Assembly: GCA_947053645.1 (NCBI GenBank)
Contig: CAMRTM010000003.1
Coordinates: 16,232 to 80,231, forward strand
Source of the DNA: an uncultured Bacillota bacterium
Lineage (GTDB): Bacteria; Bacillota; Clostridia; Christensenellales; UBA1242
Direction: 5' to 3'
DNA: 64,000 nucleotides
The first letter of the stretch is position 1; each line of letters begins with the position of its first letter. Positions 2,180-56,125 of this stretch are shown here, piece by piece. The translations under genes were made by a program, and so were the position numbers. The notes under the pieces were generated by a model, which was not told where the DNA came from, searched no databases, and saw only the letters and a list, made by a program, of their open reading frames with translations.

Positions 2180-2239
2180 AAATTTTTCTCCTTTATCTTC
2201 ATGGTAATTATACCACATCTTCACAATTTTGACAATCAA

Positions 2240-3781: not shown

Positions 3782-3899
3782 ATAAGCCACCTTTTAATAT
3801 TGATAGTAAAATCATAACATCCACGATTTTTTTTGTCAAGCATTCATGAACGATTGAATAGGGTTTGATTTTTCTTTATAGAAGTGATAATATAAGAGC

Positions 3900-4979: not shown

Positions 4980-5046
4980 CGAAGATTGTCGAAGACGAAT
5001 AATACTTTTTTATAGTCAAATTCTAACAATCGTAAAGGAGGAGATT

Positions 5047-5748: not shown

Positions 5749-5778
5749 AGTGCATGTTTTATGCACTTTTTTGTATCC

Positions 5779-5807
5779 TTGACAATGCAAATTATTAATG
5801 ATATAAT
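5779..5807 (+). promoter_or_regulatory. Sigma-A type promoter
   Basis: TTGACA, 17 nt, TATAAT, about 25 nt upstream of the 5833 ORF and just after a hairpin (agtgcat..atgcact + T run). Confidence 0.6.
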
Positions 5808-5832
5808 TTTGCATAGATTGTAGGAGAAAAAC

Positions 5833-6402: not shown

Positions 6403-6416
6403 TAAAAAAGAAGAGG

Positions 6417-37841: not shown

Positions 37842-37923
37842 GCGGATATGGCGGAATGGCAGACGCGCTGGATTTAGGTTCCAGTCCGAAAGGGTGCAGG
37901 TTCAAGTCCTGTTATCCGCACCA
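37842..37923 (+). tRNA. tRNA-Leu (anticodon TAG), CCA encoded
   Basis: GCGGATA acceptor / TATCCGC-A-CCA, anticodon arm CTGGA-TTTAGGT-TCCAG, long variable arm, T arm GCAGG-TTCAAGT-CCTGT. Confidence 0.9.
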
Positions 37924-37928
37924 TATAT

Positions 37929-37957
37929 CCTTTCTAAAAAGTCTTATTTTAGAAAGG
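37929..37957 (+). terminator. 11-bp perfect hairpin right after tRNA-Leu
   Basis: cctttctaaaa-agtctta-ttttagaaagg. There is no clear T run after it, so terminator function is uncertain. Confidence 0.4.
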
Positions 37958-38112
37958 AATAATAGAAATCGTTATAATGCCGATAAATAGGGCAATGTAG
38001 CGATTTTTAATTTATGTAGAATTGTTAAAAAGTTAGAATTAATAGCGAAAAAGTCTTATTTAGATATCAATGAATTTTTGATTTTCATTGATATTTTTTG
38101 TTTTTCAAGAAA

Positions 38113-38189
38113 AATCAAAACTTTCGCAAAATCAAAATAAAAAAATCAAAAGTAGCTGATTTTACCATTAAAAAAATCAAAAATCAAAA
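38113..38189 (+). repeat. Cluster of five direct AATCAAAA octamers (left island end)
   Basis: AATCAAAA at 38113, 38130, 38144, 38175 and 38182, plus an inverted copy near 38077-38084. Confidence 0.7.
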
Positions 38190-38191
38190 AC

Positions 38192-38253
38192 ATTAGCACC
38201 AATTAGCACAGATTAGCAAAAGTTAGAATGCACGAGAATTTCTGGGAATTATA
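38192..38253 (+). promoter_or_regulatory. 62-bp leader with four phased 10-bp repeats (copy A, upstream of the fiber operon)
   Basis: ATTAGCAcc aATTAGCAca gATTAGCAaa aGTTAGAAtg + cacgagaatttctgggaattata. 58/62 identical to the reverse complement of 55172-55233. Confidence 0.75.
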
Positions 38254-38314
38254 CTTGAAAGTGAGGAGGTAAAATTATTAAGAAAAACAAAAGTCGAGTA
38301 TAAAGGAGAAAGTT

Positions 38315-38956
38315 ATGGATAGCGAGTTTGTGCTAAGTTTAAAGGAGATTTCTTTAGAAATTGTTGTAATTGCTTTATTGGTGTTTGGACTCACAATGCT
38401 AATCAAATGGCCAATTAAAAAACTGACAGCAAAGTATGATGAGAACAAAAGAAAAGCTATAAACACAGTGATAGTATTTATCCCAATGTTCCTTTCATTG
38501 TTATTTAATGCATTATATTTCGGAATCTTTAAATCCCAATGGTTTTCAACACAGGCTTTTGATAGTATGGTAAGTTCATATGTTCTTGCAGTTGCAATTT
38601 ATGCTGTGTATACAAGAATTGTAATACTTATCAAGGGTGCAAAAGGACAAAGTGTAGAATCAGACCTAAGCAAAGAGACAATTTCATACATAAAGAAAAA
38701 TGTCAAAACATTATCTAAGACACTAAAATTAGATGAACAAGAACTTAACAAAATAGTTTCAAAAGTTGAGAGTCTAGTTAAACTTAGAGATGAAATTACA
38801 AGCAATGTTATATTGCAAGATATTCCAGAGACAGAAAACCTGGAAAGACAAATCAAAGAGTTGAACACTCAAAAAAATGATATCTTGGACAAGATATCCA
38901 AAAATCAATCTGAATTAGAAAAATTACAAAAATCAATTAAAAAGGAGAAAAATTAA
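38315..38956 (+). CDS. Three-TM membrane protein with long charged coiled-coil tail (holin-like architecture)
   Basis: TM segments at about aa 14-31, 49-72 and 85-106, then ~100 aa of K/E-rich coiled coil. First gene after leader copy A. AAGGAG RBS. Confidence 0.45.
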   Translation: MDSEFVLSLKEISLEIVVIALLVFGLTMLIKWPIKKLTAKYDENKRKAINTVIVFIPMFLSLLFNALYFGIFKSQWFSTQAFDSMVSSYVLAVAIYAVYTRIVILIKGAKGQSVESDLSKETISYIKKNVKTLSKTLKLDEQELNKIVSKVESLVKLRDEITSNVILQDIPETENLERQIKELNTQKNDILDKISKNQSELEKLQKSIKKEKN

Positions 38957-38958
38957 CT

Positions 38959-39402
38959 ATGTATCAGAGACAAGAATTTAAGGATAGAGAAGCAAAAAAT
39001 CCAAACAAAAGGAGAATTATAGTACTTGAACAAAATGCTAATGAAATCATTGCAAACATTGAACCAGTGGCAGAAGAGATTACTGAAGAAGGCACACCAT
39101 TTAATGCTGACCTTATGGAGAAATTTCAAGAATCAATTATTCAAAGTGAAACCGACTCGTCAGAAGCTCTTAGAATCGCAAGAGAGGCTAAATCACAATC
39201 ACAAGAATCATACGACCACGTGGTTTCAGTTCAAGGAACAAAAGTTACAAAAAATGGAGCTTTCGTTGCGAATTTTAATGCAGATGAAAAAGTCGACCAA
39301 ACTGATTTTGAAGCAATTGTGCGAAGAGTAGCCGCTTTGGAAAATAGTCCTATTATGACAAAAATAAAGTATGATTCAGAATCAGATACTTTTACTATTT
39401 AA
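38959..39402 (+). CDS. XkdV-like tail-fiber N-terminal domain protein (stub)
   Basis: MYQRQEFKDREAKNPNKRRI..EEITEEGTPFNADLMEKFQESI follows the Y-x-R..F-x-D..P-N-R..GTP..A..M pattern of Firmicute prophage tail-fiber N-termini. Only 147 aa. Confidence 0.5.
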   Translation: MYQRQEFKDREAKNPNKRRIIVLEQNANEIIANIEPVAEEITEEGTPFNADLMEKFQESIIQSETDSSEALRIAREAKSQSQESYDHVVSVQGTKVTKNGAFVANFNADEKVDQTDFEAIVRRVAALENSPIMTKIKYDSESDTFTI

Positions 39403-39434
39403 GTTGTTGCTTACATTGACAAAAAGGAGGAATT

Positions 39435-39965
39435 ATGCCAGATATTAGTTGTGAAGGAAAAATTGAAGCAAGAAGTTTGTTTGTCGATGGCTCAGAAATA
39501 TTTCCAGCAGGCATTGTTTTAGCATTTGGCGGAACTAGTATTCCAGCAGGGTATTTGCTTTGTGATGGAAGGGCAGTGTCAAGAACTCAATATGCTAGAT
39601 TGTTTAATGCAATTGGAACAAGTTATGGAGAAGGAGATGGACTCACATCCTTTAATCTACCAAACCTAATGGATAGGTTTATTCAGGGAAAAAATGAGAT
39701 TGTAAAGGATATTGAAGCAAAGTTACCAAACATTAAAGGTGGTAAGAAGTCGGGAAGCATTTTATATGGTGCAAATACTGAAATGCAGGGAGCGTTTCAG
39801 GGAAAATCTAATACAACAGTATATTCAAGTGTTGGCTCAGGCAGTGGTAAGATTTATTATAGTCCATTAGATTTTGATGCATCAAAGTCTAACCCAATTT
39901 ACAGCGACAATTGTAATACAGTTCAACCCCCAGCAGTTGGTATGAAATATATTATCAAATATTAG
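39435..39965 (+). CDS. Phage tail collar domain protein (fiber-tip-like 1)
   Basis: IVLAFGGTSIPAGYLLCDGRAVSRTQYARLFNAIGTSYGEGDGLTSFNLPNLMDRFIQG is a clear tail-collar motif. N-terminal adaptor motif MPDISCEGKIEA. LPNIKG motif. Confidence 0.75.
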   Translation: MPDISCEGKIEARSLFVDGSEIFPAGIVLAFGGTSIPAGYLLCDGRAVSRTQYARLFNAIGTSYGEGDGLTSFNLPNLMDRFIQGKNEIVKDIEAKLPNIKGGKKSGSILYGANTEMQGAFQGKSNTTVYSSVGSGSGKIYYSPLDFDASKSNPIYSDNCNTVQPPAVGMKYIIKY

Positions 39966-39978
39966 TTGGGAGATTCGT

Positions 39979-40453
39979 ATGAGAATTTTTAATGAAAATA
40001 AAACAAAAGAAATAAAAAAAAGAAGAAGTTGACTCTATAACAGAAAGATTAGTAGAAGATAAACTCTTTATACAACATCACGAAGTCATCCAGGAAATTC
40101 CAAAGCAATCTCATCTTAAGGTAGTTAAGGAATACGATAATGGCGGAAAAGATGTAATAGAAGTGGTTGATGTTGAATATGTGAAACCACAAGAAGCTTA
40201 TGATGAATATGAAGATATCTTAAGAGTAAAAACCTTAACAAAAGAAGAAATATTAAACAATCTTCGAATACTTAGGGAAGAACAGTGTTTTTCTATTGTC
40301 AACAGAGGATTAGTTTGGTATGCACAAATTGATAACAGCCAAAATTTAGAACTTACGCGATGGTATAAAGAATGGTTAGATATTACCGACTAATACACTG
40401 AAGGCGTGGATGTATTGACTATCATTCCAAATAAGCCAGAGTGGTTGAAGTAA
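39979..40453 (+). pseudogene. XkdW-like fiber accessory/chaperone-like gene with an A8 frameshift and an in-frame TAA
   Basis: ATG at 39979 (MRIFNENKTKEIKK) runs into an A8 tract (40014-40021), and the homologous frame continues in +1 (EEVDSITERLVEDKLFIQHHE..). TAA at 40391-40393 is followed in frame by YTEGVDVLTIIPNKPEWLK, which matches the C-terminus (VIPNKPTWLK) of the paralog at 42454-42804. Confidence 0.65.
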
Positions 40454-40462
40454 GGAGGTAAT

Positions 40463-40906
40463 ATGGGGAAATTTAATTGTGAAGGAGAAATCCAACTCTT
40501 TGGTATAAACATATTAGATAAAATCTATCCAATAGGTTCAGTTTATTTATCAGTAAGTCAAACAAGTCCTGCAAGTCTGTTTGGGGGGGGTACGTGGTCT
40601 CAGTTACCAGAGGGACACGCTGTATGGACAGCTTCAAGTGGTGCTGGCGAAACGATTTCAGCAGGTTTGCCAAATATAATCGGTAAAACAACTGATGTAA
40701 TTTTTTATAAAGATGTAATTAGAGGCGAAGGAGCCTTCGTTACTGGAGACACTGCTGCCTATTGGGATAGTAACAAAGGTGGAGATTATGTGGGAAGAAG
40801 AGTGTCGCTTTGGTTTGATGCTTCTTGCTATAACTCGATATATGGGGCATCATCAACAGTTCAACCACAAGCAATAAAAATTTATGCGTGGAAAAGAATT
40901 TCATAA
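40463..40906 (+). CDS. Fiber-tip-like protein 2
   Basis: N-terminal MGKFNCEGEIQ adaptor motif. IYPIGSVYLSVSQTSPASLFGGGTWSQL and LPNIIG motifs common in phage fiber tips. Contains a G8 tract at 40583-40590. Confidence 0.6.
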   Translation: MGKFNCEGEIQLFGINILDKIYPIGSVYLSVSQTSPASLFGGGTWSQLPEGHAVWTASSGAGETISAGLPNIIGKTTDVIFYKDVIRGEGAFVTGDTAAYWDSNKGGDYVGRRVSLWFDASCYNSIYGASSTVQPQAIKIYAWKRIS

Positions 40907-40919
40907 ATAGGAGGAAATT

Positions 40920-41456
40920 ATGGGCAATGCAAATATTGAAGGAAAATTAAAAGTCGATGGAAAATTAGAGGCTTTTGGTGTAATACCAATTGGTGGAGTT
41001 ATTCCATATTTTGGAACAAACACACCAAAAGGTTGGTTATTCTGTGATGGGAGTGTGTTTGATACTACTTTTTATCCAGAACTTTATTCCGTGTTAGGAA
41101 GTAATACCTTGCCAAAGATATCCGATAATAGATATTTGGAGGGGGCATCAATACCTAATGTACCACAAGATGCATCTATTCCTAACATTAAAGGGGAAGT
41201 TACTATTAAGGGAATTGATTCAAGTAGATTGTATATTGATCATACTGAAAACCAAATTGTTCAAGGAGCTAATAACGCACTTAGTGGTGGTAATAGTGCA
41301 TGTTGTATGCGTGTGGCAAGTTACAAAGAAAATACTGCATATAAGCAACATAAAACATTAGTCTTTGATGCAAACAAATACAACAATGTTTATAACGATA
41401 CTAATATTTTAAGACCTAAGTCAGTAACGGTTAGATATTTGATAAGGGCAAAGTAG
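40920..41456 (+). CDS. Phage tail collar domain protein (fiber-tip-like 3)
   Basis: MGNANIEGKLK adaptor motif. IPIGGVIPYFGTNTPKGWLFCDGSVFDTTFYPELYSVLG collar motif. IPNIKG. Confidence 0.7.
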   Translation: MGNANIEGKLKVDGKLEAFGVIPIGGVIPYFGTNTPKGWLFCDGSVFDTTFYPELYSVLGSNTLPKISDNRYLEGASIPNVPQDASIPNIKGEVTIKGIDSSRLYIDHTENQIVQGANNALSGGNSACCMRVASYKENTAYKQHKTLVFDANKYNNVYNDTNILRPKSVTVRYLIRAK

Positions 41457-41465
41457 GAGGAATTT

Positions 41466-41786
41466 ATGGTAAGTGAGAATGAACTTGTATCTCTTATTGA
41501 TAAGGATAATGTAATTTACAATGTTTTAAAAGCAGAAAGATTAAATTATCCAGATAGAGAAGCAACACTTGAAGAAATTGAGTGTAGAAAACAAGAGGAA
41601 CAAAAGGAAAAACAAATTGGAATACTTAAACAAAGGCTAAGAGACTATAGTGATGATATAGTTCAAGATATGGCAGGAGAAATCGTTCCAGATATTGAAA
41701 AAAGAAAACTTGAATTTATGAGAACCCACGATTTGTTAAGAGCCTTATTAAATATGCCTATTAGGGATAAGAAAGGAGAAATATAA
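41466..41786 (+). CDS. Small acidic accessory protein (chaperone-like)
   Basis: 106 aa, charged and coiled. Sits directly after a fiber-tip gene, in the same position as the XkdW-like genes. Confidence 0.35.
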   Translation: MVSENELVSLIDKDNVIYNVLKAERLNYPDREATLEEIECRKQEEQKEKQIGILKQRLRDYSDDIVQDMAGEIVPDIEKRKLEFMRTHDLLRALLNMPIRDKKGEI

Positions 41787-42457
41787 TGGCAAAAGCAAAT
41801 ATAGAAGGAAATGTTAAAGCTGAAAGTTTGGAAGTCTCAGGTAAAATTCAAGCGAAGACTTTGGATTTGGAGGGTGCGTTTACCGCACTTAAGAGTATTG
41901 GTGGGGGATTTTCAATATCCGACCCAGTAAATGTGGGATTAGAGTTGGGTAGAAGAGATGGAACACCAGGCACTCCATATATTGACTTCCATACAGATGG
42001 ACAAGCAAATACAGATTATAATGCAAGAATTATTGCACATAGCAATTATTTAGATATAGCATCTGCTGGAGGTTTAAAGATTAATGGAAATTCCGTAGAT
42101 GCTCTAATGATGGCTATGATGGGAAATAATTGGTCTGCATTTTCGACCTATGGAAAAGTTACTAAACTTGTAGACGGGAATATTGCATCTGGTAATATAG
42201 GAATTGGTGCGCCACTTTTGAACTATGATATTATTTTCGTTTGCGGAACAGAGGATAATAACAATGGAACTACTTGGACTTGTATACCTGTTTGGCAACT
42301 TAGTGAGGCTTTAACACAAAATCCAAATGGCAATACAGCTTTGTGGTTTAATTCTCAGGCTTTTTGGTATGTAAAAAACTCATCATTTAATACAACAACA
42401 CTAACAGTCTTTTCAGAATGTGCAAAAATATATAAAATAATAGGAGTGAAACTATGA
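41786..42457 (+). CDS. Fiber-tip-like protein 4 (paralog of 42814-43452)
   Basis: MAKANIEGNVKAESLEVSG..GTPGTPYIDFHTDG..TDYN.R. The first ~85 aa are nearly the same as the paralog; the C-terminal ~135 aa are unrelated. Confidence 0.6.
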   Translation: MAKANIEGNVKAESLEVSGKIQAKTLDLEGAFTALKSIGGGFSISDPVNVGLELGRRDGTPGTPYIDFHTDGQANTDYNARIIAHSNYLDIASAGGLKINGNSVDALMMAMMGNNWSAFSTYGKVTKLVDGNIASGNIGIGAPLLNYDIIFVCGTEDNNNGTTWTCIPVWQLSEALTQNPNGNTALWFNSQAFWYVKNSSFNTTTLTVFSECAKIYKIIGVKL

Positions 42458-42804
42458 TTAAGTACGAATTAGATGAAAACAATTTCTTAACTGGGAATTT
42501 TGCTTATGTTGGACAATTTGAAAGATTTGTGGAATTAGATAAAGAACTTAACGAAGTAAATAAAAATTTGCAATGGAATGGCACAAACTTCATTTTGTCG
42601 ACAAATCCAAAAGAAGTAGAAAGAGAACTTCGTGTGTTAAGAGAAGAAAGAGAGAAAGAATGTTTTTCTTTCATAAACAGAGGACAAATGTGGTATGAAA
42701 CGCTAAGTTATGAACAAAAACAAGAACTAAGAAATTGGTATATTCAATGGCTTGATGTAACAGAAACAAAAGTAATTCCAAATAAACCAACATGGTTAAA
42801 ATAG
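42454..42804 (+). CDS. XkdW-like fiber accessory/chaperone-like protein (intact)
   Basis: ..LRVLREEREKECFSFINRGQMWYETLSYEQKQELRNWYIQWLDVTETKVIPNKPTWLK. Paralog of the disrupted gene at 39979-40453. Confidence 0.5.
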   Translation: MIKYELDENNFLTGNFAYVGQFERFVELDKELNEVNKNLQWNGTNFILSTNPKEVERELRVLREEREKECFSFINRGQMWYETLSYEQKQELRNWYIQWLDVTETKVIPNKPTWLK

Positions 42805-42813
42805 GGGGAGTAC

Positions 42814-43452
42814 ATGGCAAAAGCGAATATAGAAGGAAATGTTAAAGCTGAAAGTTTAGAAGTTTCAGGTAACATTAAAGGCAATACGTTAGATTTAGAA
42901 GGCTCTTTTACAGCTCTTAAAAATAAAGGTGGTGGTTTTTCTATCTCAGATCCAGTAAATGTTGGTATAGAACTTGGGAGAAAAGATGGAACACCAGGTA
43001 CTCCATATATTGATTTTCATACAGACGGAAAGCCAGAAACAGATTATAACTCAAGATTAATTGCTGTTGGAGATATGTTAAGCTTAAATTCTTCTGAACT
43101 TCGTCTTAATGGGCCAACAGCAAGATTTAGTATAAATGGTGTTCGTCTTGGAGATTATGGGATTGAAATATTATCTAAAGCAGAAAGGGATTTACCAGTA
43201 GGCACTAATATAAGTTTAACACAACCGATTACGAATTTTAGTGCATTGGCAATAGCAATTGAACGCGATAATGTTATTAATGATATAAAATACTATCCAG
43301 TTTCACTTATAAAAGCATATATGAATAATTATGCTTTTACATGTCAAGGTTATGGTAATACATCATGTAAGTTCAGATTTACTGATATACAGCATATAAA
43401 CTTTCAAGCACATTATTATACTGGCTGGTTTCGTATATTTGGAATTGTGTAA
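42814..43452 (+). CDS. Fiber-tip-like protein 5 (paralog of 41786-42457)
   Basis: Same N-terminal module MAKANIEGNVKAESLEVSG..GTPGTPYIDFHTDG.., with a different C-terminal domain. Confidence 0.6.
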   Translation: MAKANIEGNVKAESLEVSGNIKGNTLDLEGSFTALKNKGGGFSISDPVNVGIELGRKDGTPGTPYIDFHTDGKPETDYNSRLIAVGDMLSLNSSELRLNGPTARFSINGVRLGDYGIEILSKAERDLPVGTNISLTQPITNFSALAIAIERDNVINDIKYYPVSLIKAYMNNYAFTCQGYGNTSCKFRFTDIQHINFQAHYYTGWFRIFGIV

Positions 43453-43473
43453 GTAAAAAAAAGATTAATTAGT

Positions 43474-43506
43474 AAAAAAAGATACTCATTTCTGAGTATC
43501 TTTTTT
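43474..43506. terminator. Bidirectional terminator at the convergence point of the two island operons
   Basis: aaaaaaa-gatactca-tttc-tgagtatc-tttttt. Confidence 0.75.
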
Positions 43507-44097
43507 ATGTTTCTCTTTTTTTGGAGGGTTGTAAGCATACCAAGATTTCATTATTTCGTTAACATCTAATGAGTTTTTGCATTTCGACTCTACCATATTA
43601 AAGCTAATAAATGTTAGTAATTTTCGAACTTGATTTTTTGTATAATGATTAATACACATTCTTTCTTTTTTGTTATTAACCAATGTGAATTCCAAATACT
43701 TTTTAGGCATAGAGGATGAAACCCACTTCAATTGTATTTTTTTATTTTTAGAGTTTTTTTCGCTCGCAATAATTGATATATTTTGAATATCAATATATTT
43801 AATTTTGCATTTATACTGAATTTTTTCAAATTTTGGAAGCATATCGCCAAAAGTATATATATCTTCTTTCCTTAGATGAATTTTAAAGCATAGTAAAAAC
43901 CTTATAGAAGTATAAAGGAGAAAAATTATTGCCAACACAAATATTACGTGTTCGTGTGGTTGCAAGTGTAATGAGGGGATTTCGACTCCACAAAGAGGTA
44001 AGATGGAGATTGTCAAGTACAGTATTGACAACCCCCAAAAGAAACAATTTAACAGTATAAAGCCAATAGAATGAGGGACAAAAACTCTTTTTTTCAT
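43486..44097 (-). CDS. Membrane protein, candidate immunity for orphan toxin 3
   Basis: Three N-terminal TM segments plus a PH-like soluble domain. Lies immediately downstream of orphan rhs-CT 3. Confidence 0.45.
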   Translation of the reverse strand: MKKRVFVPHSIGFILLNCFFWGLSILYLTISILPLCGVEIPSLHLQPHEHVIFVLAIIFLLYTSIRFLLCFKIHLRKEDIYTFGDMLPKFEKIQYKCKIKYIDIQNISIIASEKNSKNKKIQLKWVSSSMPKKYLEFTLVNNKKERMCINHYTKNQVRKLLTFISFNMVESKCKNSLDVNEIMKSWYAYNPPKKEKHKKDTQK

Positions 44098-44108
44098 TTA
44101 TACTCCTT

Positions 44109-45056
44109 TTATGTTAAAGCGGTTTTGAATATGTCAATGACTGATCCGTATAATGCCAAACCAAACATCTTTCCAAAGGTTTTCCAAGAGATATGCCTAA
44201 TTAAATCTCTTCTAAATTTTGTGTAAATCTGATCAGTTATTGCACTCCAACTTCCTCTACCATAGGTAATACCTTTAACTGAATATTTCGTATTTATTAT
44301 ACCAACGAATGCCATAGAAACAAAACCATTAATTGCGCCGTTTACTAAAGAACCAACGAGATTAAATTCCGTACCATAAATAGCATGATTAAAGGCATCA
44401 CTTAGGACGGTAGATACTAAGCCAGTTACGAAAGCAGAAATATAAGTACCTACTCCAGGGATGATGGAGAAAGCTCCACCTATAAATCCGCCAATAGTAC
44501 TGCCCAGGAAATCTCCCCAAGACCATTCCCATTTGCCAGTTACAATACCTTTAACTACAACTGATGCTGTATATGAGACTGCTCCTACAGCGGCACCAAT
44601 GGCGGCTGCAATTAGCAATCCAATAAGGAAGCTTAAGAAATAGCCGTTTTCATCAACACCATTTACAGGATTGTTTAAACAATATGCATAAAGGTTTAGT
44701 CCATTAATGGTAATTTTTGTTATGTCAAGTGTAGTAATATCATCTGCATTAATAAATCTGCCAAGTTCAGGATCGTAATACCTACTATTTAAGTAATAAA
44801 GATTAGTTTCAAAATCATAGTAGTAACTGCGATATCTAAATGGATTTTTAAAAGTAATAAACGCATTTATATTACTAATATCATTATACTTAAAATCATC
44901 ATCAATTGCAACAAAATCATAAGTTATCTTACCATCATTTGTGATTTTTTCACCCCAAAATTCCAGTTTCTGATTTCCCCAAGCATCATATGTATAACGA
45001 GATATTTGTTTACCAGTTGAATCATATATGCCAATTATATCATTTTGAGCATTTTC
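44109..45056 (-). CDS. Orphan rhs C-terminal cassette 3 (core-end fragment + Gly-zipper/hydrophobic toxin domain)
   Basis: I traced a continuous frame from 45056, directly after a TAA. It reads ..NDIIGIYDSTGKQISRYTYDAWGN..FKNPFRYRSYYYDFETNLYYLNSRYYDPELGRFINADD..LYAYCLNNPVNGVDENG, then a G/A/I-rich hydrophobic domain. There is no start codon until a TTG at 44618. Confidence 0.75.
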   Translation of the reverse strand, partial: ENAQNDIIGIYDSTGKQISRYTYDAWGNQKLEFWGEKITNDGKITYDFVAIDDDFKYNDISNINAFITFKNPFRYRSYYYDFETNLYYLNSRYYDPELGRFINADDITTLDITKITINGLNLYAYCLNNPVNGVDENGYFLSFLIGLLIAAAIGAAVGAVSYTASVVVKGIVTGKWEWSWGDFLGSTIGGFIGGAFSIIPGVGTYISAFVTGLVSTVLSDAFNHAIYGTEFNLVGSLVNGAINGFVSMAFVGIINTKYSVKGITYGRGSWSAITDQIYTKFRRDLIRHISWKTFGKMFGLALYGSVIDIFKTALT

Positions 45057-45167
45057 TTATACTAATCTTATGAACAGAAATAAAAATTAAAAGGATTAAT
45101 CATTTTTAGTTAGATGTATCAGAAATAAAAGTGATTTGCACAAAACTAATTTGTTTAATATAGATAT

Positions 45168-45201
45168 AAAAAAGATAGACTTATTTTAGCCTATCTTTTT
45201 T
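45168..45201. terminator. Hairpin terminator closing orphan cassette 2
   Basis: aaaaaagatag-acttattttagc-ctatctttttt. Confidence 0.6.
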
Positions 45202-45223
45202 ATACTCAATTTTATATTATTTG

Positions 45224-45658
45224 TTATGATAATTTTTTAATAACAGAGTATTCATCATAAATTGTTTTATCAAAGATAATCCCGCAATCAGTAAAACTAT
45301 TTTCAAAATAGATGAGAGCATTATATTTTTCAATGTCTTTGTTTGAATTTAGAATTATATTCTGATCAAAAATGTAAAATGATAAGTTTACAATATTATT
45401 GTAGAATTCATTTGATAGGATTAATTCCACATCATTTATACTTTTAAGAAGATAGAAATTTTCAAAATTTAAAAGGCTCTTATAGTTTCCAGGAATACAT
45501 TCACGAAAAAAGCCTGTGAATACAACTTTAGCACCTTTATTTGCAAAAGAGTATAAAATCTTCTTTGCTTCTTGTAATGAAAAATCTTCACCATCCGATA
45601 GCTTAATGAAATATTGTTTTTTTCTTCCGAGATAAAAATAGTTTTTCTTGATTTTCAT
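45224..45658 (-). CDS. Hypothetical cytoplasmic protein, candidate immunity (cassette 2, second gene)
   Basis: ATG at 45658 has AAGGAG upstream. No TM segments. Position within the cassette. Confidence 0.4.
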   Translation of the reverse strand: MKIKKNYFYLGRKKQYFIKLSDGEDFSLQEAKKILYSFANKGAKVVFTGFFRECIPGNYKSLLNFENFYLLKSINDVELILSNEFYNNIVNLSFYIFDQNIILNSNKDIEKYNALIYFENSFTDCGIIFDKTIYDEYSVIKKLS

Positions 45659-45751
45659 AATATCTCCTTTTATCTTGTACCTCCTATGAGTCCACCTATA
45701 ATAGCCCCAAGTTGTTAATAAGATAAATTTGAGCAAACTTTTTATTCTTGA

Positions 45752-46045
45752 TTAATTTTTATTTTCTTTTTCTATAATTACAAATGAAGAGTCTTTTGAA
45801 AGATGTCCAAAAGTATTAGGGGTTAATGGATCTAAATGAATAGAAAAATCGTTATCTAGTTTATTTTCTGAAATCGTTATCAGTAATTTTGCTAAAGATA
45901 ATAAATCTTTTTGTTCTCCATTTATAATAATATATTTTGATTTACTATCAAATTTAATCGATAGACCAGATAAGTCTATGTCTTTTAAGACAGATGATTT
46001 ATTAATTTCTTTGTCATCAAGTATATTGATTTCAATTTTTTTCAT
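45752..46045 (-). CDS. Small protein, candidate immunity for orphan toxin 2
   Basis: 97 aa. Starts 10 nt after the orphan 2 stop, with GGAGGA RBS. Confidence 0.45.
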   Translation of the reverse strand: MKKIEINILDDKEINKSSVLKDIDLSGLSIKFDSKSKYIIINGEQKDLLSLAKLLITISENKLDNDFSIHLDPLTPNTFGHLSKDSSFVIIEKENKN

Positions 46046-46054
46046 ATTATCCTC

Positions 46055-46957
46055 CTATTTAATTACTGACCACCATTTAAATAGTTTGTAAAACAAATGA
46101 TTATTTCCACCTGGCAATATATAGTTCCCCTTTGAACCTATTGGGAAAGCCCAGCTTTCTAGATTAAAGTGAGGTCCATATTTTCCATGACCTTTATAAT
46201 CCCATCTTAACTGTCGCATACCATCTTTAGAAATCCATCTCTTATTTCCAACTTTGTTATATCCTTTTCCTAAAAACTTTTGCCCCTGCTTTGCTGCCTT
46301 AAATTGACCTGTGGAGTGGTAAACTCCTAAAATCATACTTCCAACAGCAGCAACACCTTCGGTAATTCCACTAAACCAATTGTAAGCAGTTTCGTTGCCT
46401 TGGAATATGCCATCGCGTATAAAGTTATAGTTTGTACCTGCTTCGATTAATGTCGCGATTCCATCAACTGCAGTTAAAACGCCTGCCACCAATGTTACCC
46501 CAGCGACAATCCCCATTAATAACGGAATTCCTGCTCCAAATGTTGTGACAGCTAATACGATAGCAGTTACTGCTGTGAAGATTTTTCCAATTGCCTTCCA
46601 GAACTTTTTCCAGCTCCAATTTCCAGTAGTGTCTGAATCATTTACAGGGTTATTAAAACAGTAAGCATAAAGATTTAATCCATTAAGTTCATCCATTGTT
46701 TCTGTTAAAATAGAAACATCATCTGCATTAATGAATCTACCAATTTCAGGATCGTAATATCTACTATTTAAGTAATATAAATTGGTTTCAAAGTCATAAT
46801 AGTAACTACGATATCTGAATGGATTTTTGAAAGCAATGAAAGCATTGATTTCACTAATATCATTATACTTAAAAGCATCATGGAATACAACATATTCTTC
46901 GATAATTTCTCCATTTTCTTTGATGTTTTTGCCCAAATATTCAGTTTTTACATTTCC
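46055..46957 (-). CDS. Orphan rhs C-terminal cassette 2 (core-end fragment + TM segment + C-terminal toxin-like domain)
   Basis: Frame opens at 46957, right after a TAG. GNVKTEYLGKNIKENGEIIEEYVVFHDAFKYNDISEINAFIAFKNPFRYRSYYYDFETNLYYLNSRYYDPEIGRFINADD..NNPVNDSDTTG, then hydrophobic helices and ..RWDYKGHGKYGPHFNLE... The track start is a TTG at 46936. Confidence 0.75.
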   Translation of the reverse strand, partial: GNVKTEYLGKNIKENGEIIEEYVVFHDAFKYNDISEINAFIAFKNPFRYRSYYYDFETNLYYLNSRYYDPEIGRFINADDVSILTETMDELNGLNLYAYCFNNPVNDSDTTGNWSWKKFWKAIGKIFTAVTAIVLAVTTFGAGIPLLMGIVAGVTLVAGVLTAVDGIATLIEAGTNYNFIRDGIFQGNETAYNWFSGITEGVAAVGSMILGVYHSTGQFKAAKQGQKFLGKGYNKVGNKRWISKDGMRQLRWDYKGHGKYGPHFNLESWAFPIGSKGNYILPGGNNHLFYKLFKWWSVIK

Positions 46958-46958
46958 C
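46821..46958 (-). repeat. Recombination-grade homology block shared with the main rhs gene
   Basis: Hand alignment: 137 of 138 nt identical to 49914-50051. Homology continues with more mismatches down to about 46700. Confidence 0.85.
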
Positions 46959-47010
46959 TAATTTAATATAATTTGGATTAAAAGGAAAAGATTGAAAAGT
47001 TTTTAGGTAA

Positions 47011-47043
47011 TAAAAAACATTGGCATAACCACCAATGTTTTTT
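47011..47043. terminator. Hairpin terminator closing orphan cassette 1
   Basis: aaaaaacattgg-cataacca-ccaatgtttttt. Confidence 0.75.
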
Positions 47044-47100
47044 ACGACATTAAAATAGGAGTAAGTTGTAAACTCAAGTTTATTATTGAAATCTGATTTT

Positions 47101-47490
47101 TTAGAATGTGTCAATTATTGTTTTTTTAGATGTAAAAACCTTTACATTAGGTTTACCTTCCCACTTATCTTTATTAAAAGATTTCTTATCAACAAATTTG
47201 AAAGGTCTTTTAAGGGGAGTTATTCTCTTGTATTGAATGACAATCATATTTCTTAATGTCTCTATTATAAAATTAAGAATATCTTGATCTTCTATTCCAT
47301 AGTAAAAGATTGAATTTATATATACATTAAAGAGCCCATTATTTTTATCAAAACAAATTTCCATTCTAAAATCTTCATGGAATATTATTTTAATTATGTT
47401 GTGAATAATTGAAACTTTTGACTTTAATTCATTTTCGGTTGATAATTGATTGTACAAATCAGTTATTGTCTCTACAAATCCATTTTTCAT
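47101..47490 (-). CDS. Hypothetical cytoplasmic protein, candidate immunity for orphan toxin 1
   Basis: 129 aa, immediately downstream of orphan 1. No recognisable motif. Confidence 0.4.
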   Translation of the reverse strand: MKNGFVETITDLYNQLSTENELKSKVSIIHNIIKIIFHEDFRMEICFDKNNGLFNVYINSIFYYGIEDQDILNFIIETLRNMIVIQYKRITPLKRPFKFVDKKSFNKDKWEGKPNVKVFTSKKTIIDTF

Positions 47491-47534
47491 AGCATTTTCT
47501 CCTATAATTTGTTTTATTTATTTTTAATCAAGCT

Positions 47535-48566
47535 TTATTTATTTCTAATAAAATATGATCCTAAAACTGCACTGGTGTTCCAAAGTCCTGTTAGGAAACC
47601 GGTTCTAGCAATTGTGATAGCGGCACGTGTTAGCCCCATATGTATGTGAAGTCCATGTGCCAAACTAGCCTCAAGTCTAAAGAACCCATTTCCACTGCCA
47701 AATCGAGCAAAAGTGAAACTGCCAGATTTTGAACCAAACATAAAGGCGGCTTTACTATTTTTAAGATTTGGAATGACTCTTTGTGCCCAGTTGGTTTTTC
47801 CAAGCAAGCCCAAGGCCTTCCCAGCTGCACCAAAGATGGCTCCAGAAATTGCTCCAGTGGCAGCACCAATCAATGCCTCAGTCCCAACTTTCTTCCAGTC
47901 AATGTTTTCATAACCAACAGTAAGACCTTGAGAGATTATGTTGACACCTGCACCTATTACAAGTCCCGTTAACGCACCTGTTACAGCACCTCCAACAGCT
48001 CCACCAAATATAGTCGCCGCAATGCCTCCGCCTAGTGCACCTCCAATTGCTGATGCTATACCAGCCGTAGCAACTGTTATTGCAACTACGGCGACAATAG
48101 TTACGACCGCTACTACAACTGTTATTAGCCACTTTAGCCATTTTGGTAGATCTCCATTATCATCAGATGTGTTAATTGGATTATTGAAGCAGTAACAGTA
48201 AAGGTTAAGCCCATTTATTACATCTTTTGTGGTATCAAGATTGCTAATATCATCTGCATTAATGAATCTGCAAATTTCAGGGTCGTAATATCTACTATTT
48301 AAGTAATATAAATTGGTTTCAAAGTCATAATAGTAACTACGATATCTAAATGGATTTTTAAAAGTAATAAATGCATTTAGATTACTAATATCATTATACT
48401 TAAAATCATCATCGATTGCAACAAAATCATAAATTGTTTTACCATCATTTGTGGTTTTTTCGCCCCAATATTCCAGTTTCTGATTTCCCCATGCATCATA
48501 TGTATAACGAGATATTTGTTTACCAGTTGAATCATATATGCCAATTATATCATTTTGAGCATTTTT
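47535..48566 (-). CDS. Orphan rhs C-terminal cassette 1 (core-end fragment + Gly/Ala-rich hydrophobic toxin domain)
   Basis: I traced the frame codon by codon. It is open from 48566 (after a TAA) to 47535 and has no ATG/GTG/TTG until the TTG at 47873. Reads ..NDIIGIYDSTGKQISRYTYDAWGN..RYYDPEICRFINADD..NNPINTSDDNGDLPKW, then a TM and Gly-zipper region. Confidence 0.75.
   Translation of the reverse strand, partial: KNAQNDIIGIYDSTGKQISRYTYDAWGNQKLEYWGEKTTNDGKTIYDFVAIDDDFKYNDISNLNAFITFKNPFRYRSYYYDFETNLYYLNSRYYDPEICRFINADDISNLDTTKDVINGLNLYCYCFNNPINTSDDNGDLPKWLKWLITVVVAVVTIVAVVAITVATAGIASAIGGALGGGIAATIFGGAVGGAVTGALTGLVIGAGVNIISQGLTVGYENIDWKKVGTEALIGAATGAISGAIFGAAGKALGLLGKTNWAQRVIPNLKNSKAAFMFGSKSGSFTFARFGSGNGFFRLEASLAHGLHIHMGLTRAAITIARTGFLTGLWNTSAVLGSYFIRNK
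48331..48566 (-). repeat. Homology block shared by orphan cassettes 1 and 3
   Basis: Aligned by hand with 44821-45056 (offset 3510): 12 mismatches in 236 nt. Weaker similarity continues for ~70 more nt. Confidence 0.8.
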
Positions 48567-48621
48567 TTATAACAATCTGCTGTAGGTGGTTTTTATATAT
48601 TTTGTAAATATAATTAATATT

Positions 48622-48650
48622 AAAAAGCAAGGGGGATACCCTTGCTTTTT
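48622..48650. terminator. Hairpin terminator after the main rhs-immunity pair
   Basis: aaaaagcaaggg-ggata-cccttgcttttt. Confidence 0.8.
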
Positions 48651-48674
48651 AGGTTCGCTGTGAAGTGAATTGTT

Positions 48675-49049
48675 TTATTGATGGCTTATTTTAATTAATA
48701 TTAACTGAGTGATTACAACATAGAGAATTTCTAATCCTAGAATTGAAAGAGTCACAATAAATGCAATTTCTAAGGAGTTTTGTAATAAACAAAGTAATAA
48801 AATATCAGTGATTAAAGTTAACAAGGAAAGTAAATATCCCATTATTTGCATAATGTATAGCGGTATTGCCAAGCCTTCTGAAACGGGTATACCGTCAGGT
48901 GCTCTGAATAAGAACCTGAATTTTTTAATTTTTTTGCACCTAAAAGCGCCGTTATTAACTCCTGACTTAAATTGAGAGAATACTGGTAAAGCTGCTATAA
49001 AGAATATAAACAACGTTATACATATTCCCATTATTATTTTATCACCCAT
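48675..49049 (-). CDS. Multi-TM small membrane protein, candidate cognate immunity of the main RHS toxin
   Basis: 124 aa with 3-4 TM segments. Starts 14 nt after the rhs stop, with GGAGG RBS. Confidence 0.55.
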   Translation of the reverse strand: MGDKIIMGICITLFIFFIAALPVFSQFKSGVNNGAFRCKKIKKFRFLFRAPDGIPVSEGLAIPLYIMQIMGYLLSLLTLITDILLLCLLQNSLEIAFIVTLSILGLEILYVVITQLILIKISHQ

Positions 49050-49063
49050 ATGTTACCTCCTAT

Positions 49064-52000
49064 CTATTTAATATTAAATTTATTTAATGCCCAATTTATA
49101 ATATTGTTAAGAAAAGTAAAACTGCCATATGTTATCATTGCCCCAGTAAACATTTTAAACATTTGTTGTCCCACAGCCGCTGTCATTTTATTGGTAACTT
49201 GCGTTAGTGCTGATTTCATCCCTTGTGCTGTGGCGTAATAAGTTCCTGAGGCTATTCTATTCTGAACAGCTTTTAAGCTCATTGCGGCCTTTTGGACATT
49301 ATGTGCAGAACCAACAGCTTTTGCGTTTTGTGTTCCTGCACCAGCAATCAGACCTGAGACTCCGCCAACAACCACACTAATTCCGAAACTTATCCAATTT
49401 ATTTCGCTTAGTGACGCTCCACCTATTAATTGTGAGGCAAAGTTAGAAATACCACCAATACCTGCACCAATTAGCATTGAACCTATTTTGGAAATCCCAG
49501 ATACACCAAGTAATCCAGTTATTGCTCCGACTCCAATATCTAAAGCAAATTGTCCCCAGTTTAATTCTCCGTTAAAGATGGCTTGTGAGCCTAATGATAC
49601 TCCTGCACCAATCGCTGCCCCTACAAATGCCGCTCCAACTAGGCCACCAGTAAATATAGAGCCAACGACTAGCCCTACGACAATAAATCCTGCCAGTAAC
49701 CATTCCCACCATTTTGTTGTTCCAAATGGGTCAGTAAAATATATTGGATTATTCCCACAGTATGCATAAAGATTTAAACCGTTGAGTGACTCGGCATCAA
49801 GATTACTAATGTCGTCAGCATTAATGAATCTGCAAATTTCAGGGTCGTAATATCTACTATTTAAGTAGTAAAGATTGGTTTCAAAGTCATAATAATAACC
49901 ACGATACCTGAAAGGATTTTTGAAAGCAATGAAAGCATTGATTTCACTAATATCATTATACTTAAAAGCATCATGGAATACAACATATTCTTCGATAATT
50001 TCTCCATTTTCTTTGATGTTTTTGGCCAAATATTCAGTTTTTACATTTCCCCAGGCGTCATAGGTGTAGCGAACAATTTGTTTTCCATTAGAATCGTAAA
50101 TCCCAATAATATCATTTTGCAAATTCTTCTTATAGAAGAAATCAGCATCTACAATATTGTTTTTCAAATGGAAACCAGTTATGTCATCAGCTCCGTAGTA
50201 GAATGTAAGGTCATTACAGCAGTCGTGTTGTTTAATAATTTTTTCACCATTAAGGAAGAATTGAGTAGTAAAAGGTTTTTCACAAAGACAATCTTCTGTG
50301 CATTCACAATTAGCACCATTAAACTTGAATCGAGGATGGTCAGTATAAATGGTTTTACTTGTTCTAATTCCGTTTGCATTGTATTTGTAGTCAACTAATT
50401 GACCAATAATTTTATTGTTTTCATCTTTAAGTACATCAAATGCATCAAGTTGTCTGCCATTAGACCAATCGAGTTTCAAGTCTTTATATCTTGTTGGATT
50501 TCCAAGTTCATCATACTCAAACTTTCTACCATTTAACATGATAAGTTGATCTCGCCAGCCAGAAGTAGGGTATGAGTAAACAAAAGGAGTGGATTCAATT
50601 GTATCTAAATTGCCTGTTAATGTAAAAGGATATTCCAATCGTTGAGTGATATTATCGCCAGCATCATATGAGTAAACAGAAGTTTTTCCTATTTTCTTAT
50701 TATCTTCACGAATGATGCGGGATAGTCCATCATATTGATAACGTGCGATCAATTCATTATTTATTCTGACCTCAGTGATATTACCTTTACTATCATATGA
50801 ATAATGCATATTTTCGTTGGCTTCGCTTTTACTTGAAAACTTGATATTAGAAATAAGATTTGATGAGTGGTCGCCAGATTTCAAATAATTATATTCTTTA
50901 TTTATATTACCACTTTCAATTTGTTTCACTCTGCCAAGCTTATCATATTTGATAATTTGTTCAATTTCATTAGGAAGCAGAACTCCTTTAAGTTTGGGTT
51001 TAACTTCGTTTGAATAATTGTAGTTATAGAAAAGCTCCTCATCTTCAATAGTTATAGTGCTGTTTTCTACATTTGAATGTTCATCATCATAACAATTTTC
51101 AACTAGAACCTTTTTACCGTGCTGTTTTGTTTCTTCTTTGTAAGTATTACCAAATTTATCAATAAAAATTTTACTGATTTTTTCTTCAGCAGTTCCATCT
51201 TGGTTATAGATAAGTTCTTTTACAAACACTAAGTTTCCATAAGTATCGTAAATGTTTTGAGAAACTAGCCTTTCAGCAGGGCTTGGATCCTCATCAGTTG
51301 GTTTAGGAGTAAAATATGTTTCAACAACATTCCCATCATCATTGAGTGTTTGTCTAAATGTTTCTTGATTTGCAAATTTTGTGATTTCATTTTTGATAGT
51401 TTTATTACTAGATGTTGTATCATCTTCAATTGGTTCATCAATATACTCTTTGACAAGATATTCATTGTTTGCGATTGAGATTCTGGAAATATCTCCATCA
51501 GAATTATAGTCATAATCAACTGAGAAATCATTGTGTTTAAGGCTAGTTAATGTATCAAGATAATAGCCATACGTATTTGTATTTTCAATTCCATTAATTG
51601 TTGATGAAATCTCAAGTAGATTGTTGTCTGGGGTATAGCCGTAACTAATTTTAGTGCCATCTTCATATGTCTTTGACGTTATTATACCAGTACCTTCAAT
51701 GTACTCAAGCTTTGCTCCATCAAAGCCTAACTCGTTAAGCTCTTTTGTAGATTTACCTTTTTCATCTAGGCAACTTTCTTGATAGAATTTAGAAGAAGGC
51801 TCATCCTTGTTATAGGTTATAGATTTTACAACTAATCCTTGTTCATTATAAGTATTTTCATTGACAATACCATCGCAATTTGTTGTTCTAATTAAGCTGC
51901 CTTGTTTATTGTATTCATAAACTATCTCAAGTGGTTCTGCTCCCGACTTGTTAATTTCCGATTTCTTGTAAATCAATTCCTTCGAGATTCTTGTAGAGTC

Positions 52001-55132: not shown

Positions 55133-55171
55133 TTTCTTATTCTCCTTTTAATTTTTTAGTTACAATTCAAT

Positions 55172-55233
55172 TATAATTCCCAGAAATTCTCATGCATTCT
55201 AACTTTTGCTAATCCTTGCTAATTCGTGCTAAT
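55172..55233 (-). promoter_or_regulatory. 62-bp leader with four phased 10-bp repeats (copy B, upstream of the rhs gene)
   Basis: Reverse complement reads attagcacgaattagcaaggattagcaaaagttagaatgcatgagaatttctgggaattata. Ends 39 nt before the rhs ATG and overlaps the last codons of the sigma-like gene. Confidence 0.75.
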
Positions 55234-55605
55234 ATTGGGTTGCATTTTAGATGTTATCAATATTAGTTGGTTTAATGCATCGCTATGTAACTGATAAATT
55301 CGCTTTGTTGAGAAGTGAATTTTATCAGCGATTTGGTCAAATGTAAAAAAGCTTATATATCTCATATATAGAATAGTTCTATAAGGTTGTTGAAGTTTTT
55401 GTATTAAACTTTCAATATATTTCTTCCTTTCTAGAATTTTCTTAATTTCTAATTTTTCAGTTTCTTTTGTATCAATTAAAAATGCAGAATCGTGTTGATT
55501 CATAGTGAGTTTATTGAATAATTCAACCTCTTTAAACTTTTCGGTTAAGTATTGATTATCAAACCAGTAACTCTCAAAGAGTTCTTTCAACTTTTCCCTT
55601 GTCAT
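55219..55605 (-). CDS. Small sigma-70 region-4-like protein / phage late-activator-like regulator
   Basis: C-terminal ..YRTILYMRYISFFTFDQIADKIHFSTKRIYQLHSDALNQL is a region-4-type HTH, as in small phage sigma/RinA/ArpU-like activators. ATG at 55605 has GGAGGTGG upstream. Confidence 0.55.
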   Translation of the reverse strand: MTREKLKELFESYWFDNQYLTEKFKEVELFNKLTMNQHDSAFLIDTKETEKLEIKKILERKKYIESLIQKLQQPYRTILYMRYISFFTFDQIADKIHFSTKRIYQLHSDALNQLILITSKMQPNISTN

Positions 55606-55780: not shown

Positions 55781-56125
55781 ATGTTTAAACATAAACTAAG
55801 AGACCTTAGGAGAGAAAGAAAACTTACTCAAGATGCTCTAGCAAAGCTTTTGAATGTTGGCAAAACAACAATATGCTTTCTAGAAACGGGAGTTCGTGAA
55901 CCAAGTGTTGAAATGTTATTTAAAGTAGCGAAAGTGTTTGGAGTTACTACTGATTGGCTTATGGAAGATGACTCCATAACAATAAAAGAAAGACCACAAG
56001 TAAATACGGTTACTATAATTGGTAGGGGTGGAACATACACAACAATTCAATTGAAAGATGATGAAATTAACGAATTGAAGAAAATTGCGCAAGAAATGTA
56101 TGACAATGATAAAAAAGACAAATAA
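55781..56125 (+). CDS. XRE-family repressor-like HTH protein
   Basis: LRDLRRERKLTQDALAKLLNVGKTTICFLETGVREPSVEMLFKVAKVFGVTTDWL is a canonical HTH_3 domain. Confidence 0.8.
   Translation: MFKHKLRDLRRERKLTQDALAKLLNVGKTTICFLETGVREPSVEMLFKVAKVFGVTTDWLMEDDSITIKERPQVNTVTIIGRGGTYTTIQLKDDEINELKKIAQEMYDNDKKDK

Follow-up and report, generated by a model that had tools for sequence, protein, structure and literature searches.

Why should a toxin gene and a set of fibre-like genes, lying on opposite strands of one bacterial island, be preceded by nearly the same block of DNA? The question is raised by a 64,000-nucleotide stretch of contig CAMRTM010000003.1 from an uncultured Bacillota bacterium (the window). 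One copy of the block (copy A, plus strand from 38192, ATTAGCAccaATTAGCAcagATTAGCAaaaGTTAGAAtgcACGAGAAtttCTGGGAAtTATACTtgaa) lies ahead of an operon that begins with a 213-amino-acid membrane protein, here called TM213, and continues with fibre-like proteins; the other (copy B, minus strand from 55233, ATTAGCAcgaATTAGCAaggATTAGCAaaaGTTAGAAtgcATGAGAAtttCTGGGAAtTATAATtgaa) lies ahead of a gene for a 2022-amino-acid RHS toxin. RHS and other polymorphic toxins are usually discussed by way of their secretion systems and, to our knowledge, how Gram-positive gut anaerobes time the making of such toxins is largely unknown. An initial annotation of the window read the two copies as a shared leader built of helically phased repeats, through which a single island-encoded factor would switch on both operons. 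We consider it probable, from the sequence comparisons set out below, that the copies are instead a pair of activator-dependent promoters of the late transcriptional regulator (Ltr) type that couple the RHS toxin to the membrane-protein/fibre operon.

Pairwise alignment of copy A (38192-38253, plus strand) with copy B (55233-55172, minus strand) returned 58 identities over 62 positions, the value that had been counted by hand, and a repeat finder extended the match to 71 nt with 65 identities (92%; 38189-38259 against 55166-55236). As first described, both copies carry ATTAGCA three times and then GTTAGAA in exact 10-bp phase, which can be read directly at 38192, 38202, 38212 and 38222 in copy A and at 55233, 55223, 55213 and 55203 in copy B. 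The 10-bp register runs two units past GTTAGAA, through a degenerate unit 5 (ACGAGAA at 38232 in copy A, ATGAGAA at 55193 in copy B) and then CTGGGAA; counted to unit 5, the heptad arrays span 38192-38238 (plus strand) and 55187-55233 (minus strand). All three mismatches between the copies within the array fall in the three-nucleotide spacers, with one further mismatch in unit 5 and one at the fifth position of the −10 hexamer described below.

Chance does not produce this pattern in the window. The 32-nt core GTTAGAATGCAYGAGAATTTCTGGGAATTATA occurs exactly twice, compared to no occurrence in 100 shuffles, and ATTAGCA-N3-ATTAGCA-N3-ATTAGCA is found only in copies A and B across the 64 kb even when three mismatches are allowed (0 expected). 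Lone ATTAGCA heptamers elsewhere in the window occur at chance level (19 found, 17.5 expected). A 12-nt partial copy, AAAAGTTAGAAT, does exist at 38028-38039, as the initial annotation pointed out, but the orthologous upstream DNA of two close relatives (L001 and L065) does not preserve it; judged on that comparison, it is probably a chance match or a vestige outside the element.

The placement of the two copies was also described correctly. Copy A ends at 38253, 61 nt before the ATG at 38315, while copy B ends at 55172, 39 nt before the RHS ATG at 55132, and overlaps the end of a small upstream gene that encodes a 128-amino-acid protein, the candidate activator (55219-55605, minus strand). 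The array in copy B starts 12 nt ahead of that gene's stop codon, and its units 1 and 2 write the last codons, ..NISTN, and the TAG stop (55221-55219). The C-terminal residues of the protein, ..ISTN in most homologues, are thus dictated by heptads 1 and 2, and the binding sites constrain the protein's tail.

We compared the element across related loci that were fetched without reference to the DNA motif, using either the activator protein (L001, L003, L004 and L007-L011) or TM213 (L090 and L091) as the query. Wherever a locus reaches the 3′ end of the activator gene (11 loci), it has the threefold ATTAGCA-N3 array, and so do both loci fetched with TM213. The same module recurs in activator-fetched loci down to 55% protein identity. 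Its order is an XRE-family gene, usually with an M78 peptidase gene, divergent from the gene for the activator, a DUF1492 protein; about 85 nt further on, an RHS gene of 1,900-2,030 codons with a small immunity-like gene; and then the TM213-headed operon. The last is convergent with the RHS gene in most loci, as it had been described in the window, but co-directional in L011, which makes the orientation incidental.

A scan of 185,579 species genomes for the array pattern gave 70 stretches, of which 13 were genuine copies from Christensenella-labelled metagenome-assembled genomes, uncultured Clostridia and Ca. Caccovivens. The remaining hits (Bacteroidota, Actinomycetota and others) were set aside as unrelated perfect tandem repeats that lack the fourth unit, the core and the −10. 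A metagenome scan added three more genuine copies, and none was found in the viral contigs scanned for the pattern. Altogether, about 14 lineages of uncultured gut Clostridia contribute 23 distinct copies. Every genuine copy precedes an RHS homologue, a TM213 homologue or, in L035, a fibre operon with a TM213-class leader, and heptad 1 lies 94-101 nt from the ATG of RHS homologues and 118-132 nt from that of TM213 homologues. We also considered a dispersed generic repeat, of the kind formed by repetitive extragenic palindromes (REP) or miniature inverted-repeat transposable elements (MITE), and rejected it, as there are only two copies in 64 kb and their gene association is fixed. On the L035 contig (3025-4944, minus strand), from a Christensenella-labelled metagenome-assembled genome, we observed three promoter copies; the third stands ahead of a fibre operon without TM213 that includes Gly-rich proteins of 386 and 408 amino acids.

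The individual positions of the element are conserved to very different degrees. Heptads 1-3 read ATTAGCA in 21-22 of the 23 distinct copies. Unit 4 is GTTAGA[A/C/T], with GTTAGAA in 15 of 23 and the variants GTTGGAA in two copies and ATTAGAC in one, and unit 5 is ATTAGAA in 17 of 23, the forms ACGAGAA and ATGAGAA occurring only in the window's clade, in both promoter classes. Spacers 1 and 2, by comparison, hold at least eight different trinucleotides among the 23 copies. In loci whose coding DNA has fallen to 64-70% identity with the window in the activator gene and to 56-59% in the RHS gene, the element still matches that of the window at 84-92%. Conserved heptads with varying spacers are, as far as sequence can tell, what purifying selection leaves behind on an array of protein-binding sites in double-stranded DNA.

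An inverted pair of similar blocks could also have a quite different origin, namely as terminal inverted repeats or recombination sites that bound a 17-kb mobile or invertible segment (38189-55236). The 71-nt, 92% identical inverted repeat brackets both operons, the island abuts a tRNA gene, and in L001 the two copies do not differ anywhere in the 62 bp that reach from the first repeat to the end of ATTATA, suggesting that gene conversion has occurred. The copies of L011, however, are in direct orientation, one Christensenella contig has three, and the distance to a start codon is fixed for each copy, which also has a −10. Family scans of the segment found no transposase, integrase or invertase, and copy B sits inside the module, so that the activator, XRE and M78 genes would fall outside the supposed segment. 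We regard this explanation as very improbable.

The similarity between the copies ends at an informative place. The shared block passes through TATACT (copy A) or TATAAT (copy B) to TTGAA, 6 nt beyond the limit that had been drawn for it, and stops about 5 nt after the hexamer, with unrelated sequences downstream in the alignment. We predict that these hexamers are the −10 elements of a fibre-operon promoter, P_F (TATACT, 38250-38255, plus strand; start near 38260-38263), and an RHS promoter, P_R (TATAAT, 55170-55175, minus strand; start near 55161-55163). A −10 of the form TA[T/A/G]A[A/C]T stands in the same register in 23 of 23 copies, including the divergent L091, where the heptads and the sixth unit differ. 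A consensus promoter scan found no −35/−10 pair in either copy, and the hexamer 17 nt upstream of the −10, AATGCA, matches a −35 at two of six positions. The copies are therefore −10-only promoters, which should need an activator. The pairing proposed earlier, TTAGAA with ATTATA, was offered there without confidence; the −10 lies one step downstream of ATTATA, and no −35 is expected.

With +1 placed about 7 nt after the −10, the four heptads are predicted to start at −70, −60, −50 and −40 and the fifth at −30, the array reaching to about −24. The shared block thus ends about where transcription should begin, which is the behaviour of a promoter and not of a leader. A transcribed leader RNA, acting as an attenuator, a riboswitch-like element or the target of a small RNA or RNA-binding protein, would be consistent with the position of the block upstream of both first open reading frames (ORFs), and the absence of a terminator between the activator gene and the RHS gene means that copy B at least is transcribed by read-through. 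But shuffled controls fold better than either 71-nt copy (z = +0.86 and +1.04), neither the copies nor the two 5′ untranslated regions (UTRs) match any Rfam family apart from the neighbouring tRNA, and a heptad/spacer conservation pattern in 10-bp phase is a signature of double-stranded DNA. The real UTRs, moreover, differ between the two classes. We consider a leader function extremely improbable, and the term used in the initial annotation should be dropped.

Both UTRs are unstructured by RNA folding. The RHS unit has a predicted 5′ UTR of about 30 nt, with a pattern conserved among relatives (AAATTGTAAtCAAtAA.TAAAAGGAG). The TM213/fibre class has another (38264-38297, plus strand), also conserved among relatives and absent from copy B, in which AGGAGGT (38264-38270) is followed after 14-21 nt by AGTCGA (38292-38297) and then by the ribosome-binding site. 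AGGAGGT, a perfect Shine-Dalgarno-like sequence located where the mRNA is predicted to start and far ahead of the real ribosome-binding site, could be a 5′ mRNA stabiliser of the STAB-SD type. We examined and rejected a mini-ORF in this leader, as the AGTCGA motif does not keep a constant frame. The 114 nt that lead up to copy A (38076-38189) contain six AAATCAAAA motifs, one of them inverted; the whole window holds 19 (6.8 expected). The cluster is kept in L001 and L065, appears as TTTTGATTT clusters in L044 and L029, and has no counterpart ahead of copy B. A second regulator may bind there, or the cluster may be bent DNA that belongs to the fibre-side promoter alone.

Which protein would act at these promoters? 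The candidate activator gene has a good ribosome-binding site, and its homologues measure 126-131 amino acids. The protein is basic (isoelectric point, pI, of 9.00, with 9.76 for the C-terminal half) and matches Pfam PF07374 (DUF1492) with 30.1 bits, above the gathering cut-off of 21.5 (E = 5.8e-7), as well as Sigma70_r4; both domains are found in 17 of 17 aligned homologues. It belongs to the LtrB-type family of late transcriptional regulators, matches phrog_36 and phrog_248 of PHROGs ('transcriptional regulator/activator') and weakly matches the ArpU model of NCBIfam. In the AlphaFold model (mean predicted local distance difference test, pLDDT, 82.6) a pair of long helices makes up the N-terminal part, and after it comes a domain of three helices that can be superposed on sigma region 4, the −35-binding region, at 1.1-1.5 Å over about 55 residues. 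The recognition helix, STKRIYQLH, is invariant among homologues.

These same features raise the alternative that the 128-amino-acid protein is a true alternative sigma factor, comparable to TcdR, UviA, BotR or TetR, that reads TTAGAA as its −35 and ATTATA or TATAAT as its −10. It has the Sigma70_r4 match and hits to NCBIfam sigma models, its best structural matches are sigma region 4 domains, and its gene immediately precedes a toxin gene, an arrangement known from clostridial toxin loci. However, neither the sigma models nor the predicted structure revealed a sigma region 2, and a protein without region 2 is not a sigma factor; only the C-terminal 60-95 or so positions of the sigma models are matched, far below the family cut-offs, and the N-terminal half of its mere 128 residues is the pair of long helices. 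At 21 nt from TATAAT, TTAGAA is too distant to serve as a −35 (16-18 nt is usual), three more upstream heptads are equally conserved although a sigma promoter would not need them, and the −10 is an ordinary housekeeping-type TAnnnT. We find this alternative distinctly improbable, and the sigma-like gene of the initial annotation codes for a protein with a sigma-region-4-like domain only.

The TcdR-family (group 5) sigma factors TcdR, UviA, BotR and TetR drive clostridial toxin and bacteriocin genes, and there is a likeness to their loci: a small sigma-related protein is encoded directly upstream of a large toxin gene in a clostridial genome, and TcdR-family regulons contain a holin-like membrane protein (TcdE, UviB), a part possibly played here by TM213. 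The differences are that those proteins are complete sigma factors with region 2, compared to a region-4-like domain only, and that here there is an upstream repeat array and a housekeeping-type −10.

A closer precedent comes from phages of Gram-positive bacteria. The Ltr superfamily defined by Quiles-Puchalt et al. (2013) comprises basic proteins (pI > 8) of about 130 amino acids, including RinA, ArpU, LtrA, LtrB and LtrC, and its family III (LtrB) is DUF1492 (PMC3753634). Reporter assays and electrophoretic mobility shift assays showed that they activate the late (terS) promoter (PMC3753634). They bind three to four 7-nt repeats in direct orientation at the 3′ end of the gene that encodes them (PMC3753634; PMC13123087), binding is lost once two or more repeats are mutated (PMC3753634), and four imperfect repeats are described as a general rule for these activators (PMC13123087). 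The system in the window matches this anatomy of array and promoter point for point: a 128-amino-acid protein of pI 9.0 with a sigma-region-4-type helix-turn-helix (HTH) and a DUF1492 match above the gathering score, 7-nt direct repeats that start at the very 3′ end of the regulator gene with a putatively dependent promoter downstream, and an XRE/cI-type repressor gene adjoining the regulator gene.

Alt of phage TP901-1 offers a likeness in geometry. As cited in later accounts (Pedersen et al. 2006, in PMC13123087 and PMC3753634), Alt binds at four imperfect direct repeats from about −76 to −32 of P_late, which compares with four direct repeats at a predicted −70 to −34 here, and that late promoter lacks a functional −35, as we predict for P_F and P_R. 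According to those secondary accounts the heptad sequence differs, Alt is reported only from lactococcal phages and its targets are late structural genes.

The module departs from Ltr/terS systems in what it controls. Ltr genes sit where the early region ends, upstream of terS, with packaging, morphogenesis and lysis genes as targets; here an RHS toxin gene lies downstream, and the targets are the toxin and the membrane-protein/fibre operon instead of terS and morphogenesis genes. Target promoters number two, sometimes three, compared to one, and no terminator separates the regulator gene from its target. The module is not a phage in the window, where family scans of the island found no terminase, portal or capsid, and it has no relatives in phage collections. 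A profile of 17 sequences retrieved no activator relatives from IMG/VR, and tblastn against 50,697 phage records gave only three partial matches (38-40% over the HTH); the DNA after two of those phage genes holds one loosely repeated ATGAGAGT motif and nothing alignable to the heptads.

From the observed anatomy, family membership, conservation and exclusive gene association, we infer the following mechanism. The 128-amino-acid protein would bind the 7-bp direct sites, [A/G]TTAG[C/A]A every 10 bp and all on the same side of the helix from about −70 to −34, through its sigma-region-4-like HTH, by analogy with the characterised Ltr proteins. A weaker fifth site would lie at −30 to −24, followed at a fixed distance by the sigma-A-type −10 without a −35. 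In the structural model, the two long N-terminal helices probably let several copies of the activator assemble along the array. The activator would then stand in for the missing −35 contact and recruit the host RNA polymerase. As the same array precedes both the RHS gene and the TM213/fibre operon, the two units would be one small regulon that fires together. The earlier proposal of a phased array for an island-encoded activator, with one factor co-activating both operons, thus fits the protein family, the phage precedent, the conservation and the gene association.

Further upstream, a second level of control can be proposed. In phages, Ltr genes are governed by a repressor of the cI/XRE type. 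Divergent from the activator gene are genes for an XRE-family HTH repressor (55781-56125, plus strand) and an M78/ImmA-like peptidase (56085-56558, plus strand), which overlap; an M78 peptidase gene overlapping an XRE gene recalls switches of the ImmA/ImmR type. The XRE-M78 pair flanks the activator in L003, L004 and L007-L011, and an XRE gene, with or without M78, is divergent in every locus. The activator gene has a predicted promoter, TTGATT-N18-TGaTATTAT (55667-55638, minus strand), and directly after its extended −10 stands a palindrome, TTTAC-N5-GTAAA (55636-55622, minus strand). The form of its core, TTAC-N5-GTAA, holds in four of five related loci that were compared, and L007 has a degenerate version. 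This palindrome is a probable XRE operator. A second TGTTTACA occurs 21 nt upstream. The activator gene would probably be held off by the divergent XRE protein through this palindrome over its promoter, and the M78 peptidase would inactivate XRE and so release the activator. The logic would be that of a temperate-phage lysogeny switch that feeds a late promoter, attached here to a toxin cassette.

The presence of an XRE protein at every module also suggests a competing assignment, in which the arrays are operators through which XRE, a host global regulator or a nucleoid protein co-regulates both units while the DUF1492 protein acts elsewhere. The periodic pattern covers the core promoter (units 5-6), where a repressor would sit, and the separate AAATCAAAA cluster upstream of copy A shows that other sites exist. 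However, XRE-type dimers normally read palindromes, and while a conserved palindrome stands at the activator promoter, the arrays are direct repeats. Like the repeats of characterised Ltr systems, the arrays begin inside the DUF1492 gene at its 3′ end, and promoters without a −35 need activation, beyond relief of repression. We judge the operator assignment improbable.

Several observations nevertheless weigh against an Ltr-type promoter pair as we describe it. The 10-bp pattern enters the core promoter through units 5-6, which is unusual for a simple upstream activator and could indicate another mode of action. No terminator separates the activator gene from the RHS gene, and part of RHS transcription could be read-through, with the array modulating rather than creating transcription. 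Both the heptads and the recognition helix are invariant, so that no co-variation ties the activator to its sites; consequently, the assignment of the one to the other rests on position and family precedent. Finally, the DUF1492 match is modest (E = 6e-7) and no close relative exists in known phages or IMG/VR, and thus the function of the activator is extrapolated across a large distance.

The proposed Ltr-type circuit has partial counterparts among domesticated phage elements that have retained a phage switch. PBSX has the Xre repressor and the late factor Xpf, and ICEBs1 is controlled by ImmR and ImmA. The shared logic is an XRE repressor (with an M78/ImmA-type peptidase) that governs a positive factor and, through it, 'late' genes that act outside the cell. 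The cargo here is different, consisting of a polymorphic RHS toxin, immunity and orphan cassettes, and isolated fibre-tip-like proteins, with no tail, sheath, baseplate hub, capsid or lysin.

The surroundings of the module vary between loci. L011 is the only locus with phage genes nearby, on the other side of the module: there (1-9833) the XRE-M78 pair heads a phage-like early region on the opposite strand with helicases, a primase, an antiterminator-Q-like protein, an HNH protein and a small terminase. The RHS module takes the position of the prophage lysogeny module, an arrangement that hints at the module's origin. In L003 and L007-L010, genes for a UvrD-like helicase, a PAPS reductase-family protein, a class V aminotransferase and a LexA/S24 protein lie upstream of the M78 gene, a neighbourhood that may represent an island for DNA modification or defence. 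On its fibre side (37842-38190 in the window) the module borders on the 3′ end of a tRNA gene, which is tRNA-Leu(tag) in the window and in L044, tRNA-Arg(tcg) in L065 and another tRNA in L001. About 270 nt after the tRNA are conserved and contain three hairpins and two AAAGTCTTATTT copies (37938 and 38050). No integrase was found in the window island.

The fibre-side operon (38315-43452, plus strand) is headed by TM213 (38315-38956), for which three transmembrane helices and a long coiled coil are predicted. A Foldseek comparison of its model with viral structures gave weak hits only (best E = 0.05), several of them labelled 'holin' at E > 0.2. TM213 accompanies the RHS gene even in L091, which has no fibre genes. 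In the window it is followed by a fibre-stem-like protein of 147 amino acids, tail-collar (PF07484) and Gp10_C proteins, fibre-tip paralogues and small interleaved ORFs, and an intrinsic terminator hairpin (43475-43506, plus strand) closes the unit. Five fibre-tip-like proteins (39435-43452; 176, 147, 178, 223 and 212 amino acids) share a similar N-terminal motif, M..(N/S).EG.(I/V/L)...(L/G), and the 251-nt 5′ ends of the 223- and 212-amino-acid genes are 81% identical, which suggests interchangeable tips for one stem. ORFs of 106 and 116 amino acids between the last fibre-tip genes look like fibre chaperones.

The toxin unit (48675-55132, minus strand) consists of the RHS gene (49064-55132) and a gene for a 124-amino-acid membrane protein (48675-49049), the presumed immunity protein, and is closed by an intrinsic terminator after the two genes (48621-48651, minus strand). 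The RHS C-terminal domain is a glycine-zipper membrane segment. Family scans of the RHS protein revealed no signal peptide, LXG or PAAR domain, and no secretion system was seen. Between 43486 and 50015 on the minus strand, a repeat of about 300 nt that codes for the last part of the RHS core occurs four times (64-100% identical to the reference copy). After each copy come a different C-terminal toxin and small genes of immunity type, with an Imm32 match for one of these genes, the usual form of an orphan rhs cassette array. The orphan rhs cassettes, which lie between the two terminators (beyond 48621-48651), are probably silent spares.

Literature searches that paired RHS with tail-collar/fibre proteins or with Ltr-type regulators returned no description of this module. 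The regulatory device is known from phages; the literature searched holds no account of its use outside a phage, of its use on two or three promoters at once, or of its coupling an RHS toxin to a membrane protein and fibre-like proteins. The module is so far confined to uncultured gut Clostridia and absent from the viral collections searched. An attractive though doubtful possibility is that the module is an undescribed phage-derived toxin weapon, in which TM213 would act as a holin-like exit for the RHS protein, fibre tips would in many loci direct it to targets and the XRE/M78-Ltr switch would fire in a subpopulation. This possibility fits the constant company of TM213 and the RHS gene, the shared docking-like N-terminal motif of the fibre proteins and the lack of a visible secretion system; if true, the twin promoters would guarantee stoichiometric co-production of the toxin, its exit route and its targeting parts.

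For the biology of these bacteria, the finding means that a conserved control circuit may be read from sequence, running from an XRE/M78 switch to an Ltr-type activator and on to two matching promoters, and that it yields precise sites: five heptads, a −10 and a palindromic operator. The phage device of a late activator with direct repeats would here be reused outside phages for a small regulon. It also points to an obligatory partnership between an RHS family and an uncharacterised membrane protein, often together with tail-fibre-like proteins, and this partnership is a lead on how toxins without signals may exit the cell and find their targets.

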